Part shown: positions 16,767 through 64,000 of the stretch, one piece after another | How positions within the stretch are numbered: the stretch's first letter is position 1 | Layout: each line of letters begins with the position of its first letter | From: a virus | Direction: 5' to 3' (one strand) | Length of the DNA stretch: 64,000 nt | IMG/VR virus record: IMGVR_UViG_3300026484_000390 | Span: 4,491-68,490 of that record | Made by a program: the position numbers and the translations under genes | Notes under the pieces: generated by a model | Told to the model about the DNA's origin: nothing | What the model saw: the letters and a program-made list of their open reading frames with translations, nothing else | Database searches by the model: none

Positions 16767-16822
16767 TATAGAAATTAAGTAAAAATATTATATAATATAT
16801 AATAAAAATAAAGGGATAGAGA

Positions 16823-47673: not shown

Positions 47674-48603
47674 ATGACTGGATTAACACAAGCAAAAGAA
47701 GCATTCGAAAGAGTTGAAGGAAATACAATAGTTTTACGAAATAGTAAGGGTTTGTATAAAAGAAAACTTAAAAATAAAGAAGGCGTTTTAACATTTCCGT
47801 TTAATGGTGTGAAATACGCTTACAATCACGACACTAAAGAAATAGAAAGTGTAGAGACTGGAGAAAAAGCTACAGTAAGTACAGCCCCTGTTCAGTCAGA
47901 GTTTAATATAAATGAAAGATTCGAGTTTTTGGGTAACTTTACTAATATGGTAATTAAAAATGTAACAGCATCCTTATTAGTATCAGGAGAGGGTGGATTA
48001 GGTAAAACTCACACTATTAAAGAAAAGATAGCAGAAGCAGGTTTGGTTGAGGACCAAGATTATGTTATAATTAAAGGTTATAGCACACCAAAAGCTTTAT
48101 ATGCAACTCTATATGAGAATCAAGACAAATTAGTTATTTTTGACGACTGTGATATTGTTTTAAAAGATGTAACTTCTTTAAACATTTTAAAAGGTGCCTT
48201 AGATAATTACGATGAGAGAATTATTAGTTGGTTATCAAGAGGTTTTGTGTCGGATGACTTACCGAGTTCGTTTAAATTTACCGGAAGAGTAATTTTTATT
48301 AGTAACTTAGCTTTAAATAAGGTAGATGGTGCAGTTAAATCTAGAACTTTAAGCGTAGATTTAAGTATGACTTCACAAGATAAAATAGATAGAATGAGAG
48401 CGATAATTGAAAAAATTGAACCAGACTACGCTTTAGAAGTAAAAGAAAAAGTACTTAATTTCTTAGACGAAAATAAAGAAAAAGCAAAAGAACTTAATAT
48501 GAGAACTTTTGAAAAAGCAATTAAAGTATTGGCTTACTACATTGAAATGGATATAGAAGACCAAGGGATGGAAGCAATTAAATATTTACTTCTTTGTATA
48601 TAA
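47674..48603 (+). CDS. AAA+ ATPase, early
   Basis: GEGGLGKT, IFDDCD, GRVIFISN, AVKSR. Confidence 0.85.
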   Translation: MTGLTQAKEAFERVEGNTIVLRNSKGLYKRKLKNKEGVLTFPFNGVKYAYNHDTKEIESVETGEKATVSTAPVQSEFNINERFEFLGNFTNMVIKNVTASLLVSGEGGLGKTHTIKEKIAEAGLVEDQDYVIIKGYSTPKALYATLYENQDKLVIFDDCDIVLKDVTSLNILKGALDNYDERIISWLSRGFVSDDLPSSFKFTGRVIFISNLALNKVDGAVKSRTLSVDLSMTSQDKIDRMRAIIEKIEPDYALEVKEKVLNFLDENKEKAKELNMRTFEKAIKVLAYYIEMDIEDQGMEAIKYLLLCI

Positions 48604-48727
48604 ATAATAGTATATAAGAAGTTTATTACTGAGACTTCAATTCTCATAAGCCAACTATGGTTGGGTCTTAGAAATTTTAGTGAAGGATATAGTTGGCACT
48701 TAAACTCTTATAAGATAAAGGGAAATA

Positions 48728-49723
48728 ATGACTAAATATAGTGAACGGCTAAAAACTCAAGGAAACTACGAAATTTCTTTTGAACCTAATAGTATATGGA
48801 AATATAAAAAAAATAAAATTCTTGAAAAATTATGTGAAACTGAATACACCAAAGAGCAAAAAACTAAAAGGACTGGAGACTGGGTAAAGGCTGGGCCAGG
48901 AGGTCATTTTTCAGGGTGGAATAAGGAATACAATAAAAGAATAATTGAATTTTGGACTGCAAAAGGTGATACAATATTAGATCCTTTTGCAGGACATTCC
49001 TCTTCTTTTATGCCTTATTTAATGGAAAGGAATTTTATAGGGTTTGAGATAACTACAAAACGATATAATATACAAGTAGAACATATAGCAAAGCTGAAAA
49101 ATAAATATGGTTTTAAATCTGAAATCTTTTTATATAATAAATCTAGTGAGCATATAACAGACAATTTAATAGGCAAAAAGGTAGATGCCATTATAACAGA
49201 TCCACCTTTCTGGGATTTGGAAAAATATGAAGCCCCTATTTCAGGTACGCAGTTATCAGATATTAAAAAGCTAGATGATTTTAATAAAAAGTTAAAAGAT
49301 ATTCTATCTTTAAGTGTTAAATACCTTAAAGATGGAGGGTATATGATAGTTAAAGTAGCGAATATGAGAAGAGAAGGTAAACTCGTAAAACTTAAAGTGA
49401 TGTGGGAAGAAATGATAGAAAAAATGGGTATGGAATTAGTAGACGAAATTATTTTGGAGCTATCTCCAGTAAAACGACACCCTTTATATGCTCAAGCCAT
49501 TACTAATTTGAATATGCTAAAAGTGCATGAATATGCCTTAGTATTTAGAAAGAAAGATAAAAATGTTTTAATAAGTAACCATATTAATTTTTCTAGGCCT
49601 TTAGTTAAAGATGTGTACAACAACGAAGACCGGTTGTTTTGGAGTGAAGAGCGAGGGAAGAAGGACCATATTACAGAATCTTTGGAACGCACAAAAGAAT
49701 CCTTCGACGAAAGTGAGTGGTAA
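48728..49723 (+). CDS. SAM-dependent amino (N6A/N4C-type) DNA methyltransferase-like protein
   Basis: ILDPFAGHSS (variant motif I), GFEI, ITDPPFW, HEYALVFRK. Confidence 0.8.
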   Translation: MTKYSERLKTQGNYEISFEPNSIWKYKKNKILEKLCETEYTKEQKTKRTGDWVKAGPGGHFSGWNKEYNKRIIEFWTAKGDTILDPFAGHSSSFMPYLMERNFIGFEITTKRYNIQVEHIAKLKNKYGFKSEIFLYNKSSEHITDNLIGKKVDAIITDPPFWDLEKYEAPISGTQLSDIKKLDDFNKKLKDILSLSVKYLKDGGYMIVKVANMRREGKLVKLKVMWEEMIEKMGMELVDEIILELSPVKRHPLYAQAITNLNMLKVHEYALVFRKKDKNVLISNHINFSRPLVKDVYNNEDRLFWSEERGKKDHITESLERTKESFDESEW

Positions 49724-49724
49724 T

Positions 49725-50924
49725 ATGACGTTAGAAACAGTAGACATGGACTATTTTATTCAAGTACACGAAGAAATAGGTTCTATCTCAGCAGTAGATG
49801 TAGCGGTTTCTTGTCCTCATTGCCGAGAAGGAAGATCTTGGGGTAGGAAACATAGATTACATCTTTACATTAAACCAGGATATGACACTGCTGCTATTAA
49901 TTGTTTTAACTGTGGACTTTCAACTAATATGTATGGTTATCTTAAAGAGTTTCATCCTAATGAATTTGTTTCATATAGAAAAGCAGTAGCTGGTAGAGGA
50001 TTTGCCGAGTTACGAATGGCACACGAAAAAGAAGACCTCCTAAAAACAGAAGAGTTAGATTTTAGTAATGTGGACATTGGTATAGACTTGAACACCCCTT
50101 TAGAAAAAAAAGTAATTGAACCTAAGAAAACTTTATTACCCACAGACGGTTTTGAAGAGGGCGAAGTCCCAATGGATATGAGTACTATTAGAGGAATGGA
50201 TTTTGGATTTGATATAAGTACGACTCCAACAATTAAAGAAAAAACTAAATTAGTTGCACCATTAGTTGTTAATCCTAATTTGCCCAATTTAGTAACGCCT
50301 GTTTCTAATCTTACTAAATTACCTGATGAAGCTGTTACTTACATCAATAACCGTGGGTTGGAAGTACAAGAGCACTGGTTGTATTCTGGGAAAAATAATA
50401 AAATTAGATTTAATAATACTGATATTGTTTTATCAGAATACATTATTGTTCCTTTAAGGATGGGTGATAAGTGGTATGGTTTCCAAGCATTAGCGTGGAA
50501 ACAAAAGAAATTTTTTGTTTATTTGGTAACTGGTAATACTTCATGGAAAGTTGAAAACTGGAGTGCAATTGATAAAGAGAAACCAGTTTTCATTTTTGAG
50601 AGTGTGTATGACAGGTTAAGTTCAGGATTTCAAAATTCTATTGCAGTACTTGGTTCCAATTTACACGATGATAGATTAAAACAATTAAAAGAACCAATTT
50701 TTTGTCTTGATAATCAGAATGTGGATGAAAAATCTATTGAAGAGAGTATGAAATATCTTAAACAAGGTTATAAATGCTTTTTGTGGCCTAGCGGGTCTGA
50801 TAAATTTAAAGATACAAACGATTTAAGAAAAAAAAATGTGCCTTATGAGAAGATCCAGACAATGATAAATAATAATACTTACCACGGAATAAAGGGCATT
50901 TTAAAATTAAAGTTCTATAACTAA
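49725..50924 (+). CDS. 61: DNA primase (T4 gp61-like); likely start ATG 49725
   Basis: CPHC...CFNC zinc finger; TOPRIM IFESVYD, CLDN, KDTND. Confidence 0.88.
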   Translation: MTLETVDMDYFIQVHEEIGSISAVDVAVSCPHCREGRSWGRKHRLHLYIKPGYDTAAINCFNCGLSTNMYGYLKEFHPNEFVSYRKAVAGRGFAELRMAHEKEDLLKTEELDFSNVDIGIDLNTPLEKKVIEPKKTLLPTDGFEEGEVPMDMSTIRGMDFGFDISTTPTIKEKTKLVAPLVVNPNLPNLVTPVSNLTKLPDEAVTYINNRGLEVQEHWLYSGKNNKIRFNNTDIVLSEYIIVPLRMGDKWYGFQALAWKQKKFFVYLVTGNTSWKVENWSAIDKEKPVFIFESVYDRLSSGFQNSIAVLGSNLHDDRLKQLKEPIFCLDNQNVDEKSIEESMKYLKQGYKCFLWPSGSDKFKDTNDLRKKNVPYEKIQTMINNNTYHGIKGILKLKFYN

Positions 50925-50971
50925 CTTATTTAAGTAAAAAATAGTTATAATATTCAAACAAAGGAAGAAAA

Positions 50972-51787
50972 ATGGCAATACCAATAGACGAAATATTTGG
51001 TGATAACAATCAAGCGAGTAATGGCGGAGGAACACTCCAAGGAGAAGGATTACGAATGGGCATTCCTAGTATCTTTATTAGAACTGGAGGATGCAATTTA
51101 ACTTGTTCAGGATTTGGTTGTACAATTAAATCGGCATTAGATAAAGAAACAATTATAACCGGGTGCGATTCTATACATGCAGTGAATGTGAAGCATTTTA
51201 AGCATACTTGGACTTATTACGATACTGCGTCTGATTTAGTTCAGGCTATTCTTAAACATTATAAAATTAGACCAGAAGGGAATTCCGAAAAGCCTGATTT
51301 AGTTTTTACTGGTGGAGAACCTCTTATTCATCACAGTGACCCTTCTTTAATAGGTGCTTTAGAATATTTCATATCTAGAGGGCATAAAATCTATTTTGAA
51401 ACAAACGGTACCATTCAAATAGATTTTGAGAAATATCCGATTTTTAAAAGAGTTTCTTTTAGTATGTCCGTAAAAATGAGTGCATCGGGGGAAAATAAAA
51501 GTAAAAGATGGAAACCTGAAGTTGTTAATCAATATTTGCTTAATACAGAGGGCTCCTATTTTAAATTTGTTTTAAGTAAAGTATCTATAGAAACAGAAAA
51601 GGCAGAAGTGTTTGAATTTCTTAATCAGGTTCCTACTTTTGGGATAGTTTACTGTATGCCTTTAGGTGAGACTTCTAAAGAAGTACAAGTTAATGCAAAA
51701 GCGGTTTACAACTTTGCCGCAGAACATGGTTTCAGATATTCAGATAGATTACATATTAGAATTTTTGAGGATTTGCGAGGAGTTTAA
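50972..51787 (+). CDS. queE: 7-carboxy-7-deazaguanine synthase (radical SAM)
   Basis: TLQGEG..G.P.IFIRTGGCNLTC...CDS, FTGGEP, ETNGT, RLH. Confidence 0.92.
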   Translation: MAIPIDEIFGDNNQASNGGGTLQGEGLRMGIPSIFIRTGGCNLTCSGFGCTIKSALDKETIITGCDSIHAVNVKHFKHTWTYYDTASDLVQAILKHYKIRPEGNSEKPDLVFTGGEPLIHHSDPSLIGALEYFISRGHKIYFETNGTIQIDFEKYPIFKRVSFSMSVKMSASGENKSKRWKPEVVNQYLLNTEGSYFKFVLSKVSIETEKAEVFEFLNQVPTFGIVYCMPLGETSKEVQVNAKAVYNFAAEHGFRYSDRLHIRIFEDLRGV

Positions 51788-52011
51788 TAAATTTGGTGTA
51801 TATGTAATTATAACAGAAAAAAATATAGACAAGAAGATATGATGTATAAAGTACTAAAAGAATGGCAGTTCCAAGATGCCCAAGAAGAGCAAAATATTAT
51901 AGAAAACTATAAAAACTATGGGAATACTCCCCTAAGGGGAAATTCATCTGAGTTAAGGACAGAAGATATCTTGTTCTTAAAAGAAAAATACTATTCAATA
52001 AGGTTTTACTT

Positions 52012-53289
52012 ATGAAAGATGAGAATTTTTTCAAGTCCGAATTATCTAAAAGAAAAGTTAAGGACGCAAATAAAATACTAGAATACATATTTTTTTGTAT
52101 TTCTAAAAAAGATCTAAAAACTAACAAGTATATTAAAGGAGTTACTGAACATCATCATATTTTACCCTCTTCCCTCTACCCAGAATATAGTAATCTCAAA
52201 AAGAACGCGTGGAACGGTGTACATCTAACATATGAAGACCATTATAAAACTCACAGTATTTTGGTAGAAGCCCTATCAGATAACAAAATGCTAATGGCTT
52301 GGTTCAATATGGGTAATATTAAAGATTTACATAAAGAAGGATGCTATAAAGAAAGTAAAGAGCGTGCCTTGGAATATTTAAGTAAAACTGTTGTGGCTAG
52401 GCCATTAGGATCATCAGAAAAATATAGAAGAATACTTTTAGAAGATTTTTACAAAGGTAAGTGGGAAATACCCACAGCCAATATGGTACCAGTTTCAAAC
52501 AAAGAAGGACTTAGATTTTCTGTACATAAAGATTATTACCACATCAATAAACACAACCTAAGCCCTTTTATAGGCACAAAAATGCCTGTTCGGGAAGTTG
52601 GGACAGATAAAAAGTTATCTGTATCTTCAGAAGAATTCAAATCAGGCAGATATATAGCTTTATCTAAAGATAGGGTGGGAGCTATAGCAGAAGATGGTTC
52701 TAGGGCTATTGTATCTTCTGAAGAATATGCTAATGGAAATTACTCTCATGCTAATTCTGGAAAAACATCTTGCTTAGATTTAGAAGGTAACAAAGTAACA
52801 GTATCAACAGATGAATACAGAAAAAACAGAAACAAATATATTCATCCTAATGAAGGCAAGATATCAGTCTACAAAAGGGACACATTAGATCAAGTGTTTA
52901 TTACTACCGAAGAATATATCAAAAACAAGAGCAAATACAAAATACCAACTGAAGGAACGCTTACAGCTTATAACGATAAAGGCATAAAAACCAGAATTAC
53001 TAAAGAGGAATATTACAGCAGAGGATACTCTCATTCCAACTCCCTTTTATTGACAGCTAGAGATATCTTAGGAGAAAGTAAAGCGATTCAAGTTACTAGG
53101 GAATTTTATCTGGCGAACAGAAACTACATCCAAAATTCTTCCAAATATGTGTATCTCTATAACGGTCAATATTATAGGTCGGCAGATTTAGTAGAGCTCT
53201 CAGGAAAAGTAAATGTTCCCAGAAAATATAAAAAAGTTAAAATATCAATAAAAGAATATACCGCTATATTAAGTAAGAAAACAGTATAA
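52012..53289 (+). CDS. HNH homing endonuclease with tandem C-terminal DNA-binding repeats
   Basis: EHHHILP..VHLTYEDHYKTH; repeated ..VS.EEY..Y.H.N.GK units. Confidence 0.85.
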   Translation: MKDENFFKSELSKRKVKDANKILEYIFFCISKKDLKTNKYIKGVTEHHHILPSSLYPEYSNLKKNAWNGVHLTYEDHYKTHSILVEALSDNKMLMAWFNMGNIKDLHKEGCYKESKERALEYLSKTVVARPLGSSEKYRRILLEDFYKGKWEIPTANMVPVSNKEGLRFSVHKDYYHINKHNLSPFIGTKMPVREVGTDKKLSVSSEEFKSGRYIALSKDRVGAIAEDGSRAIVSSEEYANGNYSHANSGKTSCLDLEGNKVTVSTDEYRKNRNKYIHPNEGKISVYKRDTLDQVFITTEEYIKNKSKYKIPTEGTLTAYNDKGIKTRITKEEYYSRGYSHSNSLLLTARDILGESKAIQVTREFYLANRNYIQNSSKYVYLYNGQYYRSADLVELSGKVNVPRKYKKVKISIKEYTAILSKKTV

Positions 53290-53319
53290 TCTTTATATTA
53301 GAAATTATAAAGGAAATAA

Positions 53320-55083
53320 ATGAACAATACCAAACACAAATTAAAATTGACCTATATCAGCTCTGCTATTACATCATTCGCGAGAGCGTCTGGAATTGCA
53401 GAATCAGGGAAGAAAATAGGTATGGAAAAAGAATATCGTAGTTTGATGCAAGATTTACTATATCGAATAGATGGTTACAGCGTTAATTGTGACCACGGCA
53501 CTCTATGGAATGCTCTTACAGAAAAAGGCCATAAAAAAATATTAAAAGGGTTAAACGACCCCCAACGAAAACAGATGATTGTTATGGCCGATTCTGGAGG
53601 TCTCCAACAAATTACCTTAGGTATTAATGTGACAGATGAAGGAAGAAAGGAAATCTTTAGGCGACAAGCGGAATTTAGTACGCACGCTATGAACTTTGAC
53701 GAGATGCCAGTTTTGGTAAATGAAGCTCTTCGAGACAAATTCGCATCACAAGGAAACGGTGATCAAGGACTTAAGCTAAATCATAGTATCAAATATTTTA
53801 TTAAAGAGTTGAGATATGACAGAGGAAGAGAGTCAGGTTTTAACATTAAAGAGCAAATTGATATCATTATAGATTTTAAGAAAAATAACCCAGAAAAAGA
53901 AGTAACTAAAGTTTTAACAATTATACAAGGTTGGGATATCGAAGATTATAATGAATATGCTAGAGGGGTTTATTCGGTTTTTAACGAAATGGAAGAAGCA
54001 GAGAGAGAAAAATATTATGAACATATTGGTGGGATTTCACTAGGAACTTCAGGTATCATTTCTTACTTTAGAATGTTTGATTTATATTGTAGGGCACCTA
54101 TGGATTTAACTAACGTACCTGAAAGATTTAGAAGTTTTATTCATATTCTAGGATTAGGCGGCAATAATAAAAGTGGAGTTTTATTTGCTTTACAAGATAA
54201 TTTTTTCGGAAAAGAAGTTCATTATACTTATGACTCAACATCTCTAACAGCCGCGAGCACTTTTGGTAAACATATAATTTTAGAAGAGAAAACAACTTAC
54301 AAAAAAGGTGAGCAAATAACTTTTATGAATCAGAGATCGCAACAATTAGGAAGAGATATTAGTGATAAGACTGTAGATTTTATGAAAGAAGTTCAAGACG
54401 AATATGCTGATTTATTACAATTACACTTAGGTGATAGTAAAATGAGTGCAGATGATTTTAGAAATAAATATAGCCCCTGGAGAGATGACGGTTGTGCCGG
54501 ATTAAAATCTTTTGAAGATAAATTTGATGGGAAAGACGGATTAATAGCTAGAGAACAATACAATAATGCAATTTCTTTAAATGCATATTTGCATTTTGCT
54601 TTAGAAGCAAAAACTTTTATGAGATTATTGGACGATATGAAAAGAGGGGATTTTAATTCTATTTCAGATAATGAGTACAGAAAAGCAATGGAAAAATTAT
54701 TTACAATTAAAACTTATGACGAATATATGAAAAGAAGAGGGGAATTTAAAGCTATCCTTGGATATATCCCAAATCCGGGTTCTGAAGAAGCTGAATGGTA
54801 TGAGAAGACAAATCGCCCTTTAGAAAATAGTAACGAGAAAAGAAAGAGTACTATGACATATTGCCAAACAGTTGAAGAATTTAATGAAATTTGCAGAAGC
54901 TCTGTTATAGACCCTTTAGACGATTTTATGGGAGATGAAGATCCTACAGAAAATATAGAAAAAATAACTAGGGAGTATGAAAATAGTATTGATATTCCAG
55001 TTAAATTGACAGCTTCTCAACGGGTTAAAGCTGCGGCAGATATTATTTTAAGTAGACACAATTTAGACCCAGAGGAGTGGTAA
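53320..55083 (+). CDS. TGT-fold base-exchange enzyme, DpdA-like (paralogue 1)
   Basis: ADSGGLQ, MNFDEMP, IIQG, GISLG, IHILGLG, YDSTS in TGT order. Confidence 0.75.
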   Translation: MNNTKHKLKLTYISSAITSFARASGIAESGKKIGMEKEYRSLMQDLLYRIDGYSVNCDHGTLWNALTEKGHKKILKGLNDPQRKQMIVMADSGGLQQITLGINVTDEGRKEIFRRQAEFSTHAMNFDEMPVLVNEALRDKFASQGNGDQGLKLNHSIKYFIKELRYDRGRESGFNIKEQIDIIIDFKKNNPEKEVTKVLTIIQGWDIEDYNEYARGVYSVFNEMEEAEREKYYEHIGGISLGTSGIISYFRMFDLYCRAPMDLTNVPERFRSFIHILGLGGNNKSGVLFALQDNFFGKEVHYTYDSTSLTAASTFGKHIILEEKTTYKKGEQITFMNQRSQQLGRDISDKTVDFMKEVQDEYADLLQLHLGDSKMSADDFRNKYSPWRDDGCAGLKSFEDKFDGKDGLIAREQYNNAISLNAYLHFALEAKTFMRLLDDMKRGDFNSISDNEYRKAMEKLFTIKTYDEYMKRRGEFKAILGYIPNPGSEEAEWYEKTNRPLENSNEKRKSTMTYCQTVEEFNEICRSSVIDPLDDFMGDEDPTENIEKITREYENSIDIPVKLTASQRVKAAADIILSRHNLDPEEW

Positions 55084-55084
55084 A

Positions 55085-56101
55085 ATGCACAAAATAGTTA
55101 GAAGTAAAGCACCTTTACGATTAGGTTTTGGAGGTGGAGGGACAGATGTCTCTCCTTTTAGTGACACCCACGGAGGATATGTTCTAAATGCTACTATAAA
55201 CAAATACAGCTATTGTACAATAGAAGAAAACATAAAAGATAATAAAACTTATTTTGAAGCTACAGATATTGGCGAGACTAATGAATGCAATGAAAAAGGT
55301 AAGAGTATAAATGATAAATGTTTACTTTTAACCGGAGTATATAACTCTTTAATAAAGCGCAATCTCATAAAATATACACCACTAAAAATTAGTACTTATT
55401 CTGATGTTCAAGGTGGTTCAGGATTGGGTTCTAGTTCTACAATGGTAGTAGCTATTTTGCAATCTTTTATAGAATATTTCAATATCCCATTGGGAGAATA
55501 CGACATAGCAGAATTAGCTTGGGAAATAGAAAGAAAAGAATTATTATTGCAAGGCGGAAAACAAGATCAATTTTGTGCTACTTTTGGAGGATGGAATTTT
55601 ATGGAATTTAATAAGGATAATACAATAGTTAATCCTTTAAGAATAAAATCAAATTTTTTAAATGAATTATCTGCTAGTTTACTTATTTGTTTTGTGGGAA
55701 AAAGTAGAAACTCTGGAGATGTAATAGCTGAGCAAATTAAATCACAAGGCAAGTCTGAGAGTTCACTAATGAATTTAAAGCAGTCAGCTTTAGATATGAA
55801 AGAAGCTGTACTAAAATGTGATATAAAATCTTTTGGTATAATTTTAAATAAATCTTGGGAAGCCAAGAAAAAAACCTCTCAAAATATATCAAACGAGTAT
55901 ATAGATAAAATATACAATACAGCCATTAAACACGGTGCATTTTCAAGTAAACTTTCAGGTGCCGGGGCATCGGGGTTTATGATGTTTTTAGTAGCGCCTG
56001 AAAAGAAAGTTAATGTTAAGCGAGTACTTAAAGATGAATTTGGACTAAAAGCCGAGGATATACAGTTTTCTAAGGAAGGTGTAGTTTCTTGGCAGGTTTA
56101 A
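55085..56101 (+). CDS. hddA: D-glycero-alpha-D-manno-heptose 7-phosphate kinase
   Basis: RSKAPLRLGFGGGGTD, GSGLGSSS, GGKQDQ, KLSGAGASGF (GHMP). Confidence 0.92.
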   Translation: MHKIVRSKAPLRLGFGGGGTDVSPFSDTHGGYVLNATINKYSYCTIEENIKDNKTYFEATDIGETNECNEKGKSINDKCLLLTGVYNSLIKRNLIKYTPLKISTYSDVQGGSGLGSSSTMVVAILQSFIEYFNIPLGEYDIAELAWEIERKELLLQGGKQDQFCATFGGWNFMEFNKDNTIVNPLRIKSNFLNELSASLLICFVGKSRNSGDVIAEQIKSQGKSESSLMNLKQSALDMKEAVLKCDIKSFGIILNKSWEAKKKTSQNISNEYIDKIYNTAIKHGAFSSKLSGAGASGFMMFLVAPEKKVNVKRVLKDEFGLKAEDIQFSKEGVVSWQV

Positions 56102-56280
56102 GCGACAAAATAGACAAGAATTAAAAACTTCAACTAACTTATAGATAATAAGTGTTTAATGGAACTAAGAGCACATATCTTCTTACTACCAGTATAATTA
56201 AAAACGGTACCTGCAAGAGGTACTGTCTTTTATATAGCTTTAAGGAAAATTCAGTTATAATATAATATAAAGGATAAAAA

Positions 56281-56841
56281 ATGAATACAGATATTATTAA
56301 CCACATAAAGGCATTATCGTCATTAGATAAAGAAACTTTAACTTATTATAAATCAATTGTTAAAACAGCAATTAAACAAAGAAGAACAATTTTTACAGCC
56401 GGCAACGGTGGGAGTGCATCAGATAGTGCACATTTAACTGGAGAAATAGTAGGGAAATTTTTAATTGACCGACCAGGATATCCTGCAGTTGATTTATCAG
56501 CCAATAATACAGTTATAACAGCTATAGGGAACGATTTCGGATACGAAAAGATTTTTAGTAGACAATTAGAATCCGCTGCCAACCAGGGAGATGTGTTTAT
56601 CGGTTTTACAACTTCAGGAAATTCTAAAAATATTTTAGAAGGTGCTAAACAGGCTAAAAAGATGGGATTAGAAGTGTTAATTATATCAGGAAGAGATGGG
56701 GGAGAGATTGCTAAAGAAGGATTTAAGTCTTTAATTGTAAATAGTAACTCTACTCCAGTTATACAGATAGTGCACGGATTTATTTTACATCAAATTGCCT
56801 ATGTAACTGATGAAGTTTTCCGAGAACAAGATGACATCTAA
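56281..56841 (+). CDS. gmhA: Sedoheptulose 7-phosphate isomerase
   Basis: GNGGSA.D.AH..E, TAIGNDFG...FSRQ, TTSGNS.N, IQ..H. Confidence 0.95.
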   Translation: MNTDIINHIKALSSLDKETLTYYKSIVKTAIKQRRTIFTAGNGGSASDSAHLTGEIVGKFLIDRPGYPAVDLSANNTVITAIGNDFGYEKIFSRQLESAANQGDVFIGFTTSGNSKNILEGAKQAKKMGLEVLIISGRDGGEIAKEGFKSLIVNSNSTPVIQIVHGFILHQIAYVTDEVFREQDDI

Positions 56842-57478
56842 ATCTGAAATCTTAGAAAATATACCCGTATTGATATTAGCAGGAGGAAGAGGAACTAGAT
56901 TGCAGTCAGAAGTATCAGATAGAGCCAAACCAATGGCTGATATAAACGGTAGGCCGTTTATGGATTTATTATTAGAGAAATATAAAAAACACAAAATTTA
57001 TATTTCTGTAGGATACAAAAAAGAATCTATTATAAATGCGTATAAAGATAAATATGAATATATTATAGAAAATGAGGCTTTAGGAACTGGTGGTGCTATT
57101 AAAAAGGCATTTACTGAGACTAAAGTTAATAAAATGATAGTCTTAAACGGAGATACTTATACAGATCTTAATATTACTTTAAGAAAAGAGAGTGTTGTTA
57201 TTAATACAGTTTATCAAGAAAACTGTCACAGATACGGGCTTGTAACTTCTGTAAACGGAAAAATTCACTTTAAAGAAAAGGGTTACAACGGTGAGGGTTG
57301 CATCAATTCTGGAGTTTATATTATAGATAAAAAAGTGCTGGCAGATGAACCAGATATTTTTAGTTTTGAAGACTTTTTAACAAAATATGATGATATTGGT
57401 ATTATAGAACATAAAGCTAGTTTTATAGATATTGGAGTTCCTGAAGATTATAGGAAGGCGGTAAAACAATTTGGATAA
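56831..57478 (+). CDS. hddC: Heptose 1-phosphate guanylyltransferase
   Basis: ILAGGRGTRL, KPMA, LGTGGAI, LNGDT, FIDIGVPEDY; next to hddA, gmhA and gmhB. Confidence 0.88.
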   Translation: MTSKSEILENIPVLILAGGRGTRLQSEVSDRAKPMADINGRPFMDLLLEKYKKHKIYISVGYKKESIINAYKDKYEYIIENEALGTGGAIKKAFTETKVNKMIVLNGDTYTDLNITLRKESVVINTVYQENCHRYGLVTSVNGKIHFKEKGYNGEGCINSGVYIIDKKVLADEPDIFSFEDFLTKYDDIGIIEHKASFIDIGVPEDYRKAVKQFG

Positions 57479-57941
57479 AATATTATTTTTAGATAGAGAT
57501 GGGGTCATCAACAAAGACCCAAACGGATACACTTATGATTATAACACTTTGGAATATAATAAAGACTTAATAGAATATATTAGTAGAAATTTTAACGATT
57601 ATATTAAGATAATAGTGACCAATCAGTCGGGAATAGCACGAGGAAAATATACTAAGAACGATTTTTTAGAATTAAGTGCCTATATAATAAATGATTTAAA
57701 AAAGTTTGAAATAATAATTGATGAAATATATTATGCTCCTTATTTGCCTGATAGCAATCACTTTGATAGAAAACCTAACCCGGGTATGATTATTAAGGGA
57801 TTAATGAAATATAAAATTAATCCCAAAAACTGTATAATGATAGGTGATAAGGAAACGGATAGAGAGGCAGCGAAACACGCTGGAATTGATAACTTTATAA
57901 TGTATAAGGAAGGATTATATTATGATAAGGATAATTGGTAA
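57471..57941 (+). CDS. gmhB: Heptose 1,7-bisphosphate phosphatase (HAD)
   Basis: FLDRDGVIN, VTNQSGIARG, RKPNPGM, MIGDKETD. Confidence 0.95.
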   Translation: MDKILFLDRDGVINKDPNGYTYDYNTLEYNKDLIEYISRNFNDYIKIIVTNQSGIARGKYTKNDFLELSAYIINDLKKFEIIIDEIYYAPYLPDSNHFDRKPNPGMIIKGLMKYKINPKNCIMIGDKETDREAAKHAGIDNFIMYKEGLYYDKDNW

Positions 57942-58647
57942 CGGTGCAATAGGTAAATATTTACTGACTGATAATAGTTTTGAGATGTTTCCTAGGTTCT
58001 CTTTGGAAAACTATATTTCTAGTAAGGAAAATATTTTAAGTTATGGTAAAGGTAATACTTTTATATTTACAGCAGGAATGAGTAAACCTCAAGACTGTGA
58101 AGAAAATTTTGTATTATTGGGAAAGATAGTTAATGGAACAATAAAAGCTATTAAGGATATAGCTATTCATAATAAAGTACTTTTTTTGAGCTCAGATGTT
58201 GTAAAAGGTAGAAGTACATCGTATTCTTGGAGTAAAAAAGAAATAGAAAAGAATCTTTTGGAAATTAATAATGTTAAAGTAGCCAGACTGTCTTATGTAT
58301 TCTCGGATGTAAAAGGATTTGAAGACCCTTTTACTAAATATGCTATACAAGAAGAAAAAGCAATAGAAGTTTATGCAGACCTTAAACGAAATATAATTCA
58401 TATTAAAGATGTTAAAGACGGAATTATCGAAATATGCAGTAATTTTAAAAAAGCACCTGATATTATTAGCTTAACTGGCAAAAACTGTATAGACAAAAGC
58501 ACTCTATTGCAGTATATTAAGTGTGAATATAATATAATAACAGACACTAAGGCGATAGAAAAGTTTTTTAAAAATAGAGATAAATATATTTCTGTTGAAC
58601 CAAACTTTTATATGCCTAAAATCGATTTAACCAAAGGAAGAGAATGA
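57922..58647 (+). CDS. RmlD-like NAD(P)-dependent 4-keto sugar-nucleotide reductase
   Basis: IIGNGAIG, FLSSD, YSWSK (YxxxK), ARLSYV. Confidence 0.75.
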   Translation: MIRIIGNGAIGKYLLTDNSFEMFPRFSLENYISSKENILSYGKGNTFIFTAGMSKPQDCEENFVLLGKIVNGTIKAIKDIAIHNKVLFLSSDVVKGRSTSYSWSKKEIEKNLLEINNVKVARLSYVFSDVKGFEDPFTKYAIQEEKAIEVYADLKRNIIHIKDVKDGIIEICSNFKKAPDIISLTGKNCIDKSTLLQYIKCEYNIITDTKAIEKFFKNRDKYISVEPNFYMPKIDLTKGRE

Positions 58648-59705
58648 GCAATACAAAAATTAAAAAAGTATTATTAACAGGCATAACAGGACAAGTGGCA
58701 TCGATATACGCCGATTTTTTATTAGCAAATACTGATGTTGATATTATAGGATCACTTAGGTGGCAAGAACCTATAGATAATATTAGACATTTAACCGATA
58801 GAATAAACAAAAAAGATAGAATCCTTACAGAGTTCGCAGATTTGAATGATTATAGCAGCTTTGAAAGATTAATTAAAAAGCATAAACCAGATGTGATTGT
58901 TTCACTTGCAGCTGAGAGCTACCCTACAACAAGTTTTTCAAATCCATTAATAACTATGCAAACAAACATTTTGGGTACTAATAATATTCTAGAAATTGTT
59001 AGAATTATGAAAGAAGAAGAAGGATATAATCCACTAATACACATAGTAAGCTCTTCTGAAGTTTATGGGAAAGCTAGTTCCAATAAAGATGGTAAAGACT
59101 TATTAATAGGCGAGGAAACAAAGTTTCACGGTGCAAGTCCATACTCTATTTCTAAAATAGCTACAGACTATTTAGGTCAATTTTATGGTGAAGCTTATAA
59201 TATGAACACAGTAGTAACAAGGTTAGGCACTCATACAGGAGCTAGAAGAGGTTCTGTATTTGTAGAATCGGTAATGGCTAGAAAACTGGTCGAAATTGAG
59301 ATGGGCTTACACAAACCAGAAATCCTAATGGGTAATTTGGAAAGTATTAGGACATTTCAAAATGCTAGGGATGCAGTTAGGGCTTACTGGTTGCTTACTT
59401 TAGAAATGGAAAAAGGTAATATTAAGAAAGGTGACTATTTTAATATAGCAGGAAATGAAAAATTTAAACTATCTGATTTATTAGAAACTATGAAGCAGAA
59501 AATAAATTATAAAAATAAAATATCAGTAGGTATAGACCCAGATAGACTTAGAGTAATTGATGCTGATTATCAACTTTTTGAATGTGATAAAATTAAAAAA
59601 GTTATAGATTGGGAACCTGAAATTTCTATGGATGATACTATTGATGAACTTTTAGATTATTGGAGAACTGAATACAAAGAAGGCCGAGTCCCTTTAGACA
59701 GATGA
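58644..59705 (+). CDS. dmhA: GDP-D-manno-heptose 4,6-dehydratase (DmhA/WcbK-like)
   Basis: LTGITGQV, RWQEP.DNI.HL.DRINKKDRI, LAAESYP.TSF, SSSEVYG, SPYSISK; recalled as closely resembling Campylobacter DmhA. Confidence 0.88.
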   Translation: MSNTKIKKVLLTGITGQVASIYADFLLANTDVDIIGSLRWQEPIDNIRHLTDRINKKDRILTEFADLNDYSSFERLIKKHKPDVIVSLAAESYPTTSFSNPLITMQTNILGTNNILEIVRIMKEEEGYNPLIHIVSSSEVYGKASSNKDGKDLLIGEETKFHGASPYSISKIATDYLGQFYGEAYNMNTVVTRLGTHTGARRGSVFVESVMARKLVEIEMGLHKPEILMGNLESIRTFQNARDAVRAYWLLTLEMEKGNIKKGDYFNIAGNEKFKLSDLLETMKQKINYKNKISVGIDPDRLRVIDADYQLFECDKIKKVIDWEPEISMDDTIDELLDYWRTEYKEGRVPLDR

Positions 59706-60017
59706 GTTACAAAAAGTAAATAAAACTGAAAGAATCCAATAATTAAGTAAAAAATTCTTAATGATATAGTTTTTCTGAGTTCTAAATATATAATAACATT
59801 ACTTAATATAAATAAATATAAGAGGAAATAAATGAGAAATATAAATACCAAAAAGAAAAGGGATATATTATGTTAAAAAGAGATAATCAAGATTATCATT
59901 ACAATACTCATTATAATAAAGAGAAGAGAACCCACTTTTTAGGGCCTAAATCTTATGAAATGTTGAGCATAGAAAAATTCGATTTATACAAATGTAGAGT
60001 GGACGAAGATAGATAAA

Positions 60018-61496
60018 ATGGTATTCAGATATATAGTGGCAGGATTTGCCTCAGGTGCTCAATTTACTTTAGCGAATAAAATGTACCCTGAATTTACAAA
60101 AGCGATAATGAATAAGATACACCCAAACTCTTTAAATCTAAGTCTGGGAGTATTGAGTAATGCTTATACAGAGAAAAGAGAGCTTAAAGCTTTATTTGAG
60201 CAGTTACCTGATATACCAAAATATAGTGACTCAGGTGCTCTTCAAGTCCTCACAAGGGGTCTTGAATTTGATGAAAAAATGAGGAAAGAAGTTTATACAA
60301 GACAAATAGAAGAATCAGATTATTGTATGAGTTTTGATGAAATGGCTACAGAAATTTTAGACGAAACAACTGACTTTGGAGTAGCAACTTCTCTAAGCAC
60401 ACGAGGTAGATTTTTTGTAGATAATAAATTTCAAGAAGCGGGTAAAATATCTGCTATGAATATTTTTAAACAGATACAAGTTTTTAAAGAAAACAGTACA
60501 ACACCCAAAGACAAAATTCTTATTATACTGCACGGTAGAAGTTTTGAAACCTACAGAGAATACGCTTGGTTTCTATTTAAGGAACTAAAAATTCTATGCC
60601 CTAATTATTTAGATTACTGTAAAGGACTAGCAATAGGTTCATCTGCAGGTGCGGGATTAGGAAACTACTTTGACTTTATGATGAGATTTCAGCATGAGAT
60701 GGAATTTGTTCCTCTAAAACTTAGGCAGTATTTGCATATTTTGGGGGCTGGTGGTGTTACAAAAATAGCTCCTTTGTTTATGATTCCCAAATCTTATTGG
60801 CTCAAAGATACAATTATTAGCTCAGACAGTACTAGACAAAGCAAAGCTATTAAATTTGGTAATTTTGTGGGATATGATAAAAATAGTTTTAAACGAGAAG
60901 AAATAATGACCAACGGAATATACGACGGCCCTAGGACTCAAAGTATTCTTACTAAGATTTATGACGAATTTAAAACAGAACTTAAAATTATAAATTGCAA
61001 TAGTTATACAGATTTTCAAGAAAACTTTACGCAATACAACTCAGAAAGGAAACGGGTTAAATCTGATTTTGAAACAGATGACTCTTATCATAATGCAGTA
61101 AATATATTCTCTTTTTTATGGGCTAGTAAAATGATTATTGACCTATTTAGTCACTTAGAAGCCAGTTCATCTGTAAATACTAATGAATTACAAACTCTTA
61201 CAAAGTGGCCAAGCAATCTCATAAATCTTATAAAAAATTGTAATAAGCATTCTGATTATATTACAGAAACAATCTCGGGGCATCCCTACAAAGGAACCCA
61301 AGCAACAGATAAAATATCAGATGGCGAACTCAGTAGAGAAATCTTTAGTTATCAGAACGGCCATAGGACCGTTGCAGTAGATGGTTCTGTAAGAAGCATT
61401 CTTTTATCTTCTTTAACAGGCCTTAAACAAAAAACTATCAAAAGAAATACAGATTCTACCAGTTTATTAGAGGAATTCAACGACGAAGAGTGGTAA
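60018..61496 (+). CDS. TGT-fold base-exchange enzyme, DpdA-like (paralogue 2)
   Basis: SDSGALQ, MSFDEMA, ILHG, GLAIG, LHILGAG, SDSTR. Confidence 0.72.
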   Translation: MVFRYIVAGFASGAQFTLANKMYPEFTKAIMNKIHPNSLNLSLGVLSNAYTEKRELKALFEQLPDIPKYSDSGALQVLTRGLEFDEKMRKEVYTRQIEESDYCMSFDEMATEILDETTDFGVATSLSTRGRFFVDNKFQEAGKISAMNIFKQIQVFKENSTTPKDKILIILHGRSFETYREYAWFLFKELKILCPNYLDYCKGLAIGSSAGAGLGNYFDFMMRFQHEMEFVPLKLRQYLHILGAGGVTKIAPLFMIPKSYWLKDTIISSDSTRQSKAIKFGNFVGYDKNSFKREEIMTNGIYDGPRTQSILTKIYDEFKTELKIINCNSYTDFQENFTQYNSERKRVKSDFETDDSYHNAVNIFSFLWASKMIIDLFSHLEASSSVNTNELQTLTKWPSNLINLIKNCNKHSDYITETISGHPYKGTQATDKISDGELSREIFSYQNGHRTVAVDGSVRSILLSSLTGLKQKTIKRNTDSTSLLEEFNDEEW

Positions 61497-61743
61497 GTTA
61501 AGGTTTCTTATGTAATTATATTCTATTTTAACTTTAGAACTTACTTTCGTCTCTATAGTTTGATAAAAAGTTTTAACTAAAACAAACGGAGTAAGTTAAA
61601 CGACATTATAGACCTTAAAGCATTAGATAAGTTTTAAGGGCATATATATTTGACTAGTAATTCACTTTTAAAAGAGCGATCTTTTCTAGAAAAATATTAA
61701 GTAGTTTTCTACTATAATATATAAACAAAACAAAGGAGACTTT

Positions 61744-62109
61744 ATGTCAAAAACAATTAAGAAAGAGGTTTTTTGCTCCCTAAGCATAGACGGAATACAC
61801 AGATGGGCTAATTGCCCCATTGAAGAGGTCTCTTATTTAAGAGATGATCATAGGCATATGTTTGGAATTAAATGCTATTCAGAAGTAACTCATAATGATA
61901 GAGATATAGAATTTATAGAGCTAAAACACAAAATTTTAGACTATATGAAAGAAAAATATTACGATGATGCTTTGAGAAGTCATTACTTTGGTAGTTCAAG
62001 CTGTGAAATGATTGCTGAAGAACTTATCAACAAATTTAATTTAACAGCTTGTGAAGTAAATGAAGACGGCGAAAATGGTTCTATTTTAAAGGTAGTACAG
62101 AATGACTAA
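61744..62109 (+). CDS. QueD/PTPS-like T-fold protein
   Basis: GIHRW, HRH.F, DRDIEF, SCE.IA, EDGENG; near queE. Confidence 0.75.
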   Translation: MSKTIKKEVFCSLSIDGIHRWANCPIEEVSYLRDDHRHMFGIKCYSEVTHNDRDIEFIELKHKILDYMKEKYYDDALRSHYFGSSSCEMIAEELINKFNLTACEVNEDGENGSILKVVQND

Positions 62110-63112
62110 AACAATTTGGGTAGTAGATATTGAGTTACTTACCAATAGATATACTGGACAATGGAGAGAAAATGTACCTGAAATTTTCTCTAAAGAAACT
62201 GGACTAGTTATTAAAACAATTTCAGGAACTGATTATGAAGGAACCACTTCAGGTGGATTTTTTGATTTCACTAAAACAATGAAATACAAAGCAGAACAAC
62301 AAATTAAAATATCAGAGATGTTATCTGATGGTACAATCAAAGATGGAGATTATATATTTTATACCGATGCTTTTACTCCAACAGTAATGGCCACTCAATA
62401 TATGATTAATATGACTGATAGACGAGTGAAGCAATATGGATATATTCACACCAATTCTTATGATTCATCAGATATTTTGGGTATTAAAGGAAATAATCAT
62501 TGGGCAAAACATTTTGAGACAAGTATGTTTGAATGTTTGGAAGAAATTTATGTCGCAACTAATTATCACTTAGACCATCTATTAGTTAATTTCCCCCAAT
62601 ACAAAAATAAATTTAAAGTATCAGGATGTCCTACTAATTTAACAGAATTAGAACAATATGTTTCTACAAATAAAGAAAAAATTATAGTTTTTCCTCATAG
62701 AATTAATGAAGATAAACAACCACATTTATTTGAAGCGATGAAAGAACACTTTCCAGACTATGATTTTATTTATACTCAAGGTGAAAAAAGAACAAAGGAA
62801 GAATATTATACTTTATTAGGAAAGGCAGAAATTGTAATGAGTTTTGCTTTACACGAGAATTATGGAATCGCGACATTAGAGAGCTTACATCTAGGTGCTA
62901 AGGTAATTATGCCTAAAGACAAAAGTTATACAGAAATGTACTCGGGAGGCCTTTTATATGATAGAGAACTAGAGAAAGATATACCTGCACTTGCACTCAG
63001 AATAAAAGAAATTTTGGATGACGATAAATTGCAGGATTATTTAGATTACAGCAAAAAAAATATAGCTGAAAACTATTGTTCCTTTAAAAAAGCTTGTTCT
63101 TTATTAAATTAG
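62102..63112 (+). CDS. GT-B (GT4-like) glycosyltransferase
   Basis: IVFPHR...KQP, ENYGIATLES (Ex7E); overlaps the QueD-like gene. Confidence 0.85.
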   Translation: MTKTIWVVDIELLTNRYTGQWRENVPEIFSKETGLVIKTISGTDYEGTTSGGFFDFTKTMKYKAEQQIKISEMLSDGTIKDGDYIFYTDAFTPTVMATQYMINMTDRRVKQYGYIHTNSYDSSDILGIKGNNHWAKHFETSMFECLEEIYVATNYHLDHLLVNFPQYKNKFKVSGCPTNLTELEQYVSTNKEKIIVFPHRINEDKQPHLFEAMKEHFPDYDFIYTQGEKRTKEEYYTLLGKAEIVMSFALHENYGIATLESLHLGAKVIMPKDKSYTEMYSGGLLYDRELEKDIPALALRIKEILDDDKLQDYLDYSKKNIAENYCSFKKACSLLN

Positions 63113-63113
63113 A

Positions 63114-64000
63114 ATGAAAAACTCTACATCAGAAAAAATAGAACAAGCTCTAAAAAATAGAAATATAAGTCACATAGTGCTCTCCAAGGAAACTGTGAGT
63201 ACCATGCTTAAAGAAGCCTGTTTTATATGTTCTAGGCATGGTTATTTCAAAGCTAAACCTAAATCTGTAATAAATGCCAAATGGTCAGGTTGCAAGAAAT
63301 GTGACAGTATATATCTAAAAGAATATGTATCTGTAATAAATAAAAAAGCCTTTATACAGTCTATAAATGACAGGTACCCAAATATGTTTAATACAGGCTG
63401 GGACAATGTACTCTATACATCAGGAGATAGCCTTGTGGAGATGCAGTGCTATAAGCACGGTTTAATTATATTGAAAAAAAGTAATTTTTTGGGCGGAGGG
63501 TGCAAACAATGTAACAGAGAAGCTTTTTTTCGTAATAAACTAGAGAAGTATATTAAAAATTTAGGAAAAGAAGGTTTTTCTTTTGAAAACAGCGTATGGT
63601 CAGGATGGCATAAAGATTTTAAGGTTTCTTGTGCAAAGCATGGAGAAATAGTCACCACTCCCGCTAGCTTAAAAGACTATGGATGCAAACAATGCAACGA
63701 TTCCAAAAGAGTATTCAGTGGGGTACGACCACCTGAATACTATAAAGATAGGCCTGTTATTTTGTATCTAATAGAAATAAAATTTTGTAATAAAAGTTAT
63801 TACAAAGTAGGATTAAGCGTCTCTACAACTAAGGCTAGATATTTACGAGAGGGAGCACAATTTGAATATAACATAATTAAAGAATGGCTTTACAAAGATG
63901 GTGAACGGGCTGCCCGTTTAGAGTATGAGGTGTTGCAAGATAGCATAGAATATCAAGTACACAATCATAAAATATCAGGTATTATACCTTCTGGTGGAGG
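63114..64000 (+). CDS. Homing endonuclease with three CxxHG..GCxxC zinc repeats and a GIY-YIG-like domain; runs off the window
   Basis: Manual translation: CSRHG..GCKKC, CYKHG..GCKQC, CAKHG..GCKQC, then ILYLIEI..YYKVGLS..KARY. Confidence 0.8.
   Translation, partial: MKNSTSEKIEQALKNRNISHIVLSKETVSTMLKEACFICSRHGYFKAKPKSVINAKWSGCKKCDSIYLKEYVSVINKKAFIQSINDRYPNMFNTGWDNVLYTSGDSLVEMQCYKHGLIILKKSNFLGGGCKQCNREAFFRNKLEKYIKNLGKEGFSFENSVWSGWHKDFKVSCAKHGEIVTTPASLKDYGCKQCNDSKRVFSGVRPPEYYKDRPVILYLIEIKFCNKSYYKVGLSVSTTKARYLREGAQFEYNIIKEWLYKDGERAARLEYEVLQDSIEYQVHNHKISGIIPSGG

Follow-up and report, generated by a model that had tools for sequence, protein, structure and literature searches.

The 7-deazaguanine modifications of DNA described in the sources consulted carry small substituents (cyano, amido, aminomethyl, methyl, formyl, carboxy or hydrogen). 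Among the closest systems are those of Vibrio phages nt-1 and VH7D, whose DpdA2 transglycosylases have been shown to insert deazaguanines into DNA, the VH7D enzyme putting in preQ1 and preQ0 as well as 7-carboxy-7-deazaguanine (CDG) (PMC10516641). These phages combine QueC with QueF or ArcS, and the outcome is low-level preQ0, preQ1 or G+ (PMC6884629, PMC10516641). The locus considered here lies in a 64,000-nucleotide stretch of viral DNA (IMG/VR record IMGVR_UViG_3300026484_000390, positions 4,491 to 68,490; hereafter the window), where genes for QueE, two DpdA2 proteins, a QueD paralogue (DpdL) and a glycosyltransferase share an island, at 50972-63112, with a complete set of heptose genes. 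The arrangement is best explained as a DpdA2-type 7-deazaguanine DNA-modification island with an acquired sugar-donor pathway. That a deazaguanine placed in DNA by DpdA2 then becomes glycosylated, here with GDP-6-deoxyheptose made by the phage, is a serious possibility that falls just short of probable.

A first-pass annotation of the window had already proposed that a phage-made heptose ends up on a deazaguanine in DNA. The genes that it listed are all real, as open reading frame (ORF), family and structure matches agree, and all are read from the plus strand at or inside 50972-63112; an endonuclease gene in their midst (52012-53289) had been passed over, and one gene has to be renamed (see below). 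It knew of no described heptosylated DNA base, and our literature searches likewise found no deazaguanine in DNA with a sugar attached, heptose or other, nor any other purine so modified. In PMC10516641, whose Supplementary Data S1 and S12 list the DpdL-bearing phages, neither 'glycosyl' nor 'sugar' occurs in the main text.

Compared with nt-1 and VH7D, the island has transglycosylases of the same family (phrog_10773, with a fold of the tRNA-guanine transglycosylase, or TGT, type) and the same clustering with queE and folE (PMC6884629, PMC10516641), but no QueC is visible, and DpdL, two DpdA2 genes, a glycosyltransferase and a sugar-nucleotide pathway have been added. The FolE-QueD-QueE-DpdL-DpdA3 system of Cellulophaga phage phiST, which makes 2'-deoxy-7-deazaguanine (dDG), resembles the island in its LxxxHRHxF-type DpdL, its lack of QueC and its predicted endpoint of CDG or 7-deazaguanine (PMC10516641). 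It differs in using DpdA3 where the window has DpdA2; the 9.3-kb phiST region examined has no annotated glycosyltransferase or sugar genes, and Cellulophaga is absent from the 23 matches that the window glycosyltransferase gave by tblastn among phage records. Three cultured phages, Acidovorax phage ACP17 (cluster gp119-gp126), PA5oct and Synechococcus phage BUCT-ZZ01, carry the same module of DpdA2, glycosyltransferase, DpdL and QueE; unlike the window, the ACP17 and BUCT-ZZ01 clusters contain no annotated genes for heptose or other sugar nucleotides, and the sources consulted gave no base chemistry for the three.

The added pathway has its own counterpart in bacteria, where GDP-6-deoxy-heptose serves the surface glycans of Campylobacter and Yersinia. 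The enzyme set is the same, judging by best family matches (9e-131 to PDB 7us5 for the dehydratase), but in the window a phage encodes it, nested among genes for DNA modification, with a reductase shortened to 241 aa and no visible epimerase. The proposed logic would be that of the T-even phages, in which a GT-B enzyme of the phage decorates hydroxymethylcytosine, a non-canonical base, with glucose against nucleases, except that here a purine would be the target, and the phage would make the donor itself instead of drawing on host UDP-glucose. Animal tRNAs bearing mannosyl- and galactosyl-queuosine show that a 7-deazaguanine in nucleic acid can receive a sugar (PMC12518689), but the acceptor in queuosine is a cyclopentenediol hydroxyl that the window pathway does not make, and the nucleic acid is RNA, not DNA.

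Transglycosylases, DpdL and the glycosyltransferase

The island opens with a QueE-like radical-SAM enzyme, or 7-carboxy-7-deazaguanine synthase (50972..51787, + strand), that matches phrog_2076 at 1.9e-47 and Pfam Fer4_12 at 2e-6. Its matches to five NCBIfam models of QueE (1e-9 to 1e-12) all stay well under the cut-offs, and it shares 41% identity with QueE of L097, a locus on a 105-kb IMG/VR record (G001; CheckV completeness ~61%) that is the closest relative found. The window itself takes up the final 64 kb of a 68,490-base record (G000) with a CheckV completeness of ~31%.

Two genes of the TGT superfamily follow, dpdA2a (587 aa; 53320..55083, + strand; phrog_10773, 1.3e-38) and dpdA2b (492 aa; 60018..61496, + strand; phrog_10773, 3.9e-43). 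Their products are paralogues (28% identity, 4e-31), and DpdA2a has an orthologue of 51% identity in L097, where a single DpdA2 is present in place of the two in G000. An AlphaFold model of DpdA2b, made from a 99-sequence alignment, had a predicted local distance difference test (pLDDT) score of 83.8, and all 50 PDB matches listed by Foldseek were tRNA-guanine transglycosylases (E from 3.8e-6, probability 1.00, template modelling (TM) scores 0.40/0.52). Twelve residues (N48, D71, S72, G73, L75, Q76, Q96, F106, D107, H240, L242 and D270) are invariant in 99/99 of the aligned proteins and kept in both window paralogues, and the DSGG motif among them presumably holds the catalytic aspartate of the TGT enzymes. 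Searches of PDB sequences with phmmer for either paralogue, and with a hidden Markov model (HMM) of the 99-sequence alignment, gave chance matches only, so that the TGT kinship of DpdA2 is visible by fold only. The TGT-like identity that the first-pass annotation gave to both genes, and proposed to check by HMM and structure, is upheld in this way for DpdA2b and, by paralogy, for DpdA2a. From family and model evidence, both are DpdA2 enzymes predicted to insert 7-deazaguanine into DNA.

A full HMMER scan gathered 399 representatives of the family, while a scan of IMG/VR with the single protein DpdA2b gave no match, and tblastn matched 71 phage records, among them that of Vibrio phage VH7D, whose protein AGB06799.1, encoded between folE and queF/queC, was hit at 1e-18 by DpdA2a and at 2e-11 by DpdA2b. 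Paralogues can be still more numerous elsewhere: the 224-kb viral contig L125 has three (482-1858, 1862-3448 and 11783-13279) around a DpdL-glycosyltransferase pair.

The small gene before the glycosyltransferase (121 aa; 61744..62109, + strand) had been called queD-like in the first-pass annotation, a label that has to give way to DpdL, a QueD paralogue and putative CDG decarboxylase. Its signature L32-RDD-H36-R-H38-M-F40 fits the motif LxxxHRHxF, which marks DpdL, a paralogue of QueD that has been proposed to decarboxylate CDG to 7-deazaguanine (PMC10516641). The L, HRH and F of the motif are invariant in 33/33 aligned homologues, and the catalytic cysteine of the QueD/PTPS enzymes is missing (LxxxHRHxF against CxxxHGH in QueD). 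By tblastn the protein matches phiST gp040 (2e-13; 36.9% identity, with 89% of the query covered), which adjoins MazG downstream of QueD-QueE-FolE, the position published for CGPG_00067, the DpdL of phiST (PMC10516641). There was no match to Pfam PTPS at E 0.01 and phmmer found chance matches only among PDB sequences; the Atlas leads were clusters with PF01242 in 20-24% of their members. The alternative identification, as the phage's own QueD, was rejected on account of the DpdL motif and because ACP17, BUCT-ZZ01, L064 and L097 all encode, in addition to it, a canonical PTPS/QueD.

The first-pass annotation had placed folE and queC outside the window, and Pfam models for folE, queC and queD all failed to match in the 68.5-kb contig. 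In L097, FolE and QueD lie directly past the glycosyltransferase. QueC was found neither in G000 and G001, both incomplete, nor in the complete genomes of ACP17 and BUCT-ZZ01. Since the small gene is DpdL and QueC is absent, the predicted base is CDG-derived (7-deazaguanine or a CDG derivative) and not preQ0.

The gene at the end of the island (336 aa; 62102..63112, + strand) overlaps dpdL by 8 nt and encodes a GT-B glycosyltransferase of the GT4-like kind. Its model (pLDDT 92.9) gave over 500 matches among PDB structures in Foldseek (E <= 0.001), headed by the retaining GT-B enzymes glycogen synthase, MshA, BshA and GlgM (8e-12), and among the matches listed the best viral one was ACP17 gp124 (TM 0.87). 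The alpha- and beta-glucosyltransferases of T4 were absent among the 50 PDB and 50 BFVD matches listed; the enzyme may work like them but is no member of their families. Searching PDB sequences with phmmer gave chance matches only. A protein collection held 87 relatives, the largest in a search of 184-588 aa having 395 aa, and no fused or longer forms appeared at 589-2000 aa.

What marks this glycosyltransferase is the company that it keeps. A profile of the family found at least 590 IMG/VR stretches, from which 80 loci were kept for counting by phmmer and HMM; DpdL was present in 76/80, usually directly upstream, QueE in 54/80 and RNase H in 45/80. When plus-strand ORFs lying up to 8 kb from the glycosyltransferase were clustered for a set of 81 loci, DpdL came out in 77, a gene of ~500 aa in 74, FolE in 67, a phosphoribosyltransferase (PRTase) and QueE in 55 each and a HIT protein in 41, along with conserved families of 182, 81, 131 and 161 aa that have no assignment. 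The ~500-aa family aligns with the DpdA2 profile (hhalign 97.9%, E 6e-13), including its DSGGxQ, FD, LQG and HxLG motifs, and by this sequence evidence is a diverged DpdA. Approached from the other side, 80 DpdL loci had the glycosyltransferase in 63/80 and DpdA in 55/80. These locus counts are not independent events, because the sets share contigs and hold mostly related marine T4-like phages. Gene order varies among the islands, being DpdA2-glycosyltransferase-DpdL-QueE in ACP17, DpdA2-DpdL-glycosyltransferase in BUCT-ZZ01 and FolE-DpdL-DpdA2-cupin-glycosyltransferase in L006, and the glycosyltransferase is linked to DpdL in PA5oct, Phosso, BCSR5 and X1 as well. All told, the linkage evidence for counting the glycosyltransferase as part of the deazaguanine system is strong.

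The same loci bear on a simpler idea, that the phage makes plain dDG only, as phiST does, and that the glycosyltransferase and heptose genes serve targets other than nucleic acid, their linkage reflecting shared early expression in the neighbourhood of the replication module. In phiST and its relatives DpdL occurs with no such glycosyltransferase and replacement by dDG is complete (PMC10516641), the glycosyltransferase was not seen in 17/80 DpdL loci, and many glycosyltransferase loci are from syntenic marine T4-like phages with RNase H, QueE and FolE at fixed positions. But several of those 17 loci are short or cut contigs, and the glycosyltransferase-DpdL pair is kept across unrelated phages in varied gene orders, often with overlapping frames, which makes the idea very unlikely.

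The glycosyltransferase could also act on a small molecule or on RNA, giving a glycosylated pterin (with FolE and the PTPS-like T-fold protein), a deazapurine glycoside or a glycosylated tRNA deazaguanine. Pterin glycosylation has a precedent in the biopterin glucoside of cyanobacteria, and tetrahydrobiopterin glucosyltransferases came in at Foldseek ranks 21, 31, 46 and 47 among the matches listed, though with poorer query-based TM scores than generic GT4 enzymes (0.49-0.56 against 0.64-0.71). A free 7-deazapurine base is glycosylated by HuiG of the huimycin system with UDP-GlcNAc (10.64898/2026.04.15.718813), the tRNA sugars of animals exist (PMC12518689), and the keeping of PRTase in 55/81 islands suggests free-base or nucleotide chemistry. 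Against these stand the missing QueD/PTPS cysteine of DpdL and the DpdA-family transglycosylase found alongside the glycosyltransferase in 74/81 loci, the DpdA2 enzymes of VH7D and nt-1 acting on DNA (PMC10516641). The DNA of PA5oct, moreover, behaves as G-modified: it resists cleavage at several G-containing restriction sites and is targeted by defences specific for modified G, no structure for the base being found there (PMC12191111). An RNA or small-molecule target is on balance improbable, and glycosylation of a deazaguanine destined for DNA remains the preferred reading of the pair.

The PRTase is of the hypoxanthine/xanthine-guanine type and adjoins FolE or QueD in L097 (16697-17158), L004 (12194-12625) and L096 (3090-3551). 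It could convert free deazaguanine to the nucleotide, a hint at a pre-replicative route alongside DpdA.

The heptose cassette and its relatives

Between the two dpdA2 genes lie six genes that together would make GDP-6-deoxyheptose. The first four are HddA, a D-glycero-D-manno-heptose 7-phosphate kinase (55085..56101, + strand; NF049969 at 1.6e-107 over its full length, with GHMP kinase N and C domains); GmhA, sedoheptulose 7-phosphate isomerase (56281..56841, + strand; TIGR00441 3.1e-44, SIS_2 3.4e-19); HddC, heptose 1-phosphate guanylyltransferase (56810..57478, + strand; NF049965 7.7e-41, NTP_transferase 3.4e-12); and GmhB, heptose 1,7-bisphosphate 7-phosphatase (57471..57941, + strand; NF050049 2.2e-33, PRK08942 4.7e-33, with HAD domains). 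The NCBIfam model of its own name ranks first for each of the four, and we infer from best match and context that they are diverged phage versions of the bacterial enzymes.

The other two would convert the product to the 6-deoxy sugar. One is a short-chain dehydrogenase/reductase (SDR) of 241 aa (57922..58647, + strand) with GNGAIG at residues 6-11, SS at 90-91 and Y101-SWS-K105. Its Atlas leads are viral RmlD_sub_bind/Epimerase clusters (0.96-0.97), its direct matches are weak (phrog_540 at 0.004, 6vo6 at 0.6) and it has orthologues in L097 (44% identity) and in phage Bellamy; it is likely, from these sequence features, to be the C4 reductase for the 4-keto-6-deoxy-heptose. The other is a DmhA-type GDP-D-glycero-D-manno-heptose 4,6-dehydratase (58644..59705, + strand; Pfam GDP_Man_Dehyd 2.4e-64) for which PDB 7us5 stands far out at 9.1e-131, as against 3.6e-33 for the next match and 4.1e-31 for the best GDP-mannose 4,6-dehydratase. 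As the first-pass annotation had remarked in predicting a manno or talo configuration, no C3/C5 epimerase is visible among the cassette genes.

The packing of the island is operon-like, with 1 nt between the dpdA2a stop and the hddA start and successive overlaps of 4-32 nt from gmhA through dmhA. The same nesting is found in L097, where the order is QueE-DpdA2-HddA-GmhA-HddC-GmhB-SDR-DmhA-(706 aa)-DpdL-(160 aa)-glycosyltransferase-FolE-QueD-PRTase. The 706-aa ORF, in the place of DpdA2b, belongs to no Pfam family and is unmatched in G000. Since the proteins of the two phages are just 41-88% identical (41-66% across the cassette), the nesting of the heptose genes has been kept over considerable divergence.

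A scan of IMG/VR with HddA alone gave no match and one with the dehydratase gave a single locus, L097. In metagenomes, an alignment of the glycosyltransferase specific to its clade matched 5 loci, including the L097 contig again and one 2.3-kb fragment, and no new heptose-bearing island. HddA homologues occur in 16 phage records by tblastn, and the three loci examined (L108, L109 and L110) showed no deazaguanine genes. L109 is Synechococcus phage Bellamy, whose stretch 6863-17134 is a large cluster of glycan type with a phosphoheptose isomerase, an HddA-like kinase, a nucleotidyltransferase, an SDR and a heptose-type dehydratase (6e-121 to that of the window), accompanied by several glycosyltransferases, a carbamoyltransferase and methyltransferases and by no deazaguanine genes. 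Because of Bellamy, the cassette cannot be said to be tied to deazaguanine genes everywhere. Linkage of heptose genes with dpdA and que genes in related phages, which the first-pass annotation had made a check on its proposal, holds in L097, the closest relative found.

There is some reason, then, to consider that two separate functions are co-located in the window: DpdA2, DpdL and the glycosyltransferase would modify DNA with a host sugar nucleotide, or the glycosyltransferase would be otherwise employed, and the heptose would go to a surface glycan, to host capsule or lipooligosaccharide or to virion proteins, a use that it may also have in Bellamy. Besides the Bellamy cluster and the three HddA loci, it is favoured by the few examined loci of the glycosyltransferase family that have a recognisable sugar gene nearby and by the incomplete genomes, in which the real user of the heptose may be unseen. 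But the cassette sits between dpdA2a and the dpdL-glycosyltransferase pair, with its 1-nt and overlapping junctions, and the identical nesting persists in L097. Neither the 68 kb of G000 nor the 105 kb of G001 gave a further Glycos_transf_1 gene or a GT9 gene, and the single weak, sub-threshold GT2 match there falls within HddC. The two-function account seems rather unlikely, and the linkage evidence that the cassette feeds the DpdL-coupled glycosyltransferase is moderate.

A further argument against co-location of separate functions comes from islands in which unrelated sugar enzymes fill the equivalent place. L006 has a mannose-6-phosphate-isomerase-type cupin nested in its island, L064 has oxidoreductases of the GFO/IDH/MocA and alcohol dehydrogenase-like kinds together with a second glycosyltransferase-like gene, L129 has a GDP-mannose 4,6-dehydratase, and L122, L139 and L187 have dehydratase-like SDRs. 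Three L129 ORFs were compared with the glycosyltransferase profile, of which two gave no match and one a weak match (probability 23.6%). The L064 island (3970-14969) comprises QueD-QueE-DpdA2-FolE, the oxidoreductases, the glycosyltransferase, a phage DNA polymerase and DpdL, and it is dpdL that the second, diverged glycosyltransferase-like gene overlaps. L004 is a closer syntenic relative with neither the glycosyltransferase nor sugar genes, its order being methyltransferase-QueC-QueE-DpdA2-FolE-PRTase; its makeup indicates that islands at the equivalent position differ in content between related phages. There a class-I methyltransferase (Methyltransf_23) and QueC stand directly ahead of QueE-DpdA2 (7810-9197) and DpdL is missing, and related phages seem to switch between deazaguanine end products at this position.

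A possible route to a glycosylated deazaguanine

The route envisaged, from its chemical steps to the donor of the glycosyltransferase, the acceptor atom and the occurrence of the product in virion DNA, is a prediction from the genes. FolE, QueD and QueE would make CDG, the folE and queD genes presumably lying beyond the contig end here, as they lie past the glycosyltransferase in L097. In the absence of QueC, DpdL would convert CDG, according to the published proposal to 7-deazaguanine, and one or both DpdA2 paralogues would exchange guanine in the phage DNA for the DpdL-derived base. In parallel, GmhA, HddA, GmhB and HddC would supply GDP-D-glycero-alpha-D-manno-heptose, which the DmhA-type dehydratase and the short SDR would turn into GDP-6-deoxyheptose. 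The GT-B enzyme coupled to dpdL would then move the 6-deoxyheptose onto the deazaguanine, either in DNA or before insertion. By analogy with the T-even phages and with glycosylated queuosine, we lean slightly towards addition after insertion. The product would be a bulky glycosylated purine protecting the DNA from nucleases.

Several points weigh against this reading. The chemical one is that 7-deazaguanine offers no obvious acceptor hydroxyl; for a retaining GT4-like enzyme the acceptor would have to be of the N-, C- or carboxylate kind, or some further step would be involved. The product might be an N-, C- or acyl-glycoside, the DpdL product might be something other than plain 7-deazaguanine, or a conserved unassigned ORF might contribute a step, the candidates being the 182-, 81-, 131- and 161-aa families together with two L097 ORFs, of 706 and 160 aa. 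CDG decarboxylation by DpdL has itself been proposed only, and expression of dpdL and dpdA from ACP17 and phiST in E. coli gave no dDG; Cui et al. noted that other enzymes may be needed for dDG from the ACP17 genes (PMC10516641). The adjacent glycosyltransferase is an obvious candidate for the missing factor.

Other points concern the strength of the matches and the sample. The glycosyltransferase scores 22.9 bits against Pfam Glycos_transf_1, under the cut-off of 26.4, while its L097 orthologue reaches 27.6 bits with neighbouring matches, and the cassette enzymes lie under their curated NCBIfam cut-offs (HddA 359.9/600, GmhA 150.7/209.45, GmhB 115.5/250 and HddC 140.1/300 bits). The two 80-locus sets share at least 6 contigs, dominated as they are by related marine T4-like phages. 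At ~31% and ~61% completeness, G000 and G001 may hold further glycosyltransferases out of sight. The complete cyanophage Bellamy has HddA-HddC-SDR-dehydratase (the last at 6e-121) without DpdL or this glycosyltransferase family. Few of the loci examined have a recognisable sugar gene near the glycosyltransferase, most neighbouring ORFs lacking annotation, and because such genes are rare nearby a host sugar probably serves as its donor in most cases, and heptose need not fill that role here. The phage, finally, is uncultured, and it is from sequences and models that the case is built. The heptosyl-deazaguanine interpretation of the first-pass annotation comes out of this with the gene identities, the nesting of the island in two diverged phages and the association of the glycosyltransferase family with DpdL, DpdA and QueE behind it, and with a base that has no obvious hydroxyl and the cassette of Bellamy as its difficulties.

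A broader proposal, plausible but a shade more tentative, is that glycosylated 7-deazaguanine is a widespread and hitherto undescribed class of phage DNA hypermodification, produced by a module of DpdA, DpdL and the GT-B enzyme, with the sugar varying by lineage. If true, the class would span at least ~590 IMG/VR stretches plus the cultured phages ACP17, PA5oct and BUCT-ZZ01. Its sugar would be 6-deoxyheptose here and GDP-mannose-derived or oxidised elsewhere, a parallel to the diversity of glycans on hydroxymethylcytosine, and a sugar-bearing purine would add a new chemical class of DNA base whose acceptor chemistry, with a sugar joined to a deazapurine as N-, C- or acyl-glycoside, would be new in itself. 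It may also explain the failed reconstitution of dDG from ACP17 genes alone, the modified G of PA5oct and the role of a gene pair that is very common among marine T4-like phages. The heptose cassette would then be a case of a phage importing its own rare sugar donor, with a bearing on the evasion of restriction, CRISPR and modification-dependent nucleases and glycosylases. With the module present in cultured phages, the case is open to a direct test.

Genome setting and neighbouring genes

The gene repertoire of the window is that of a T4-like myovirus (gp32-type single-stranded DNA-binding protein, RNA ligase, deoxynucleoside monophosphate kinase, RNase H, a clamp-loader-like protein, primase and a split polymerase), with a GC content of 24-33% and no tRNA genes. 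A megablast search of phage records with the whole region gave no match. An origin from a Campylobacter phage, considered on account of the low GC and the heptose genes, was rejected, as no Campylobacter phage records were among the tblastn matches of HddA, DpdA2b, DpdL or the glycosyltransferase. The island lies near the contig terminus, and the window stops 888 bases past the glycosyltransferase because the contig ends there. A scan of 47000-64000 for promoters and terminators was uninformative, giving 76 promoter-like sites where 82.8 were expected.

As the first-pass annotation had it, a primase (49611-50924, + strand) and a methyltransferase adjoin the island, the primase directly upstream of queE and the N6/N4 DNA methyltransferase (48728-49723, + strand) directly upstream of both. 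The methyltransferase ORF overlaps the annotated primase start by 113 nt, so the true start of the primase is probably further downstream. The presence of an N6/N4 methyltransferase beside the island suggests a second, independent DNA modification.

Three ORFs resemble homing endonucleases, at 43360-44253 (phrog_3339), 52012-53289 and 63114-63998, the latter two flanking or interrupting the island and both being absent at the equivalent sites of L097. That at 52012..53289 (+ strand; phrog_12434 2.3e-15, phrog_655 2.7e-12) is an HNH/homing endonuclease between queE and dpdA2a, genes that are 44 nt apart in L097 with no such ORF between them, and is an insertion outside the pathway. That at 63114..63998 (+ strand; phrog_681 5.8e-22) runs off the contig end and occupies the position after the glycosyltransferase where L097 has folE; it too is probably a mobile insertion outside the pathway.

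Two oddities lie further from the island. A minus-strand ORF of 298 aa (39816-40712) matches the major-head-protein family phrog_138 at 8e-28; capsid proteins are usually longer, and the ORF sits among early or replication genes. The family-B DNA polymerase is carried in two ORFs, 556-2982 and 4079-5053, both matching phrog_262 and parted by a 349-aa ORF (3028-4077; phrog_22677, function unassigned), and the whole looks like a split gene with an inserted element.

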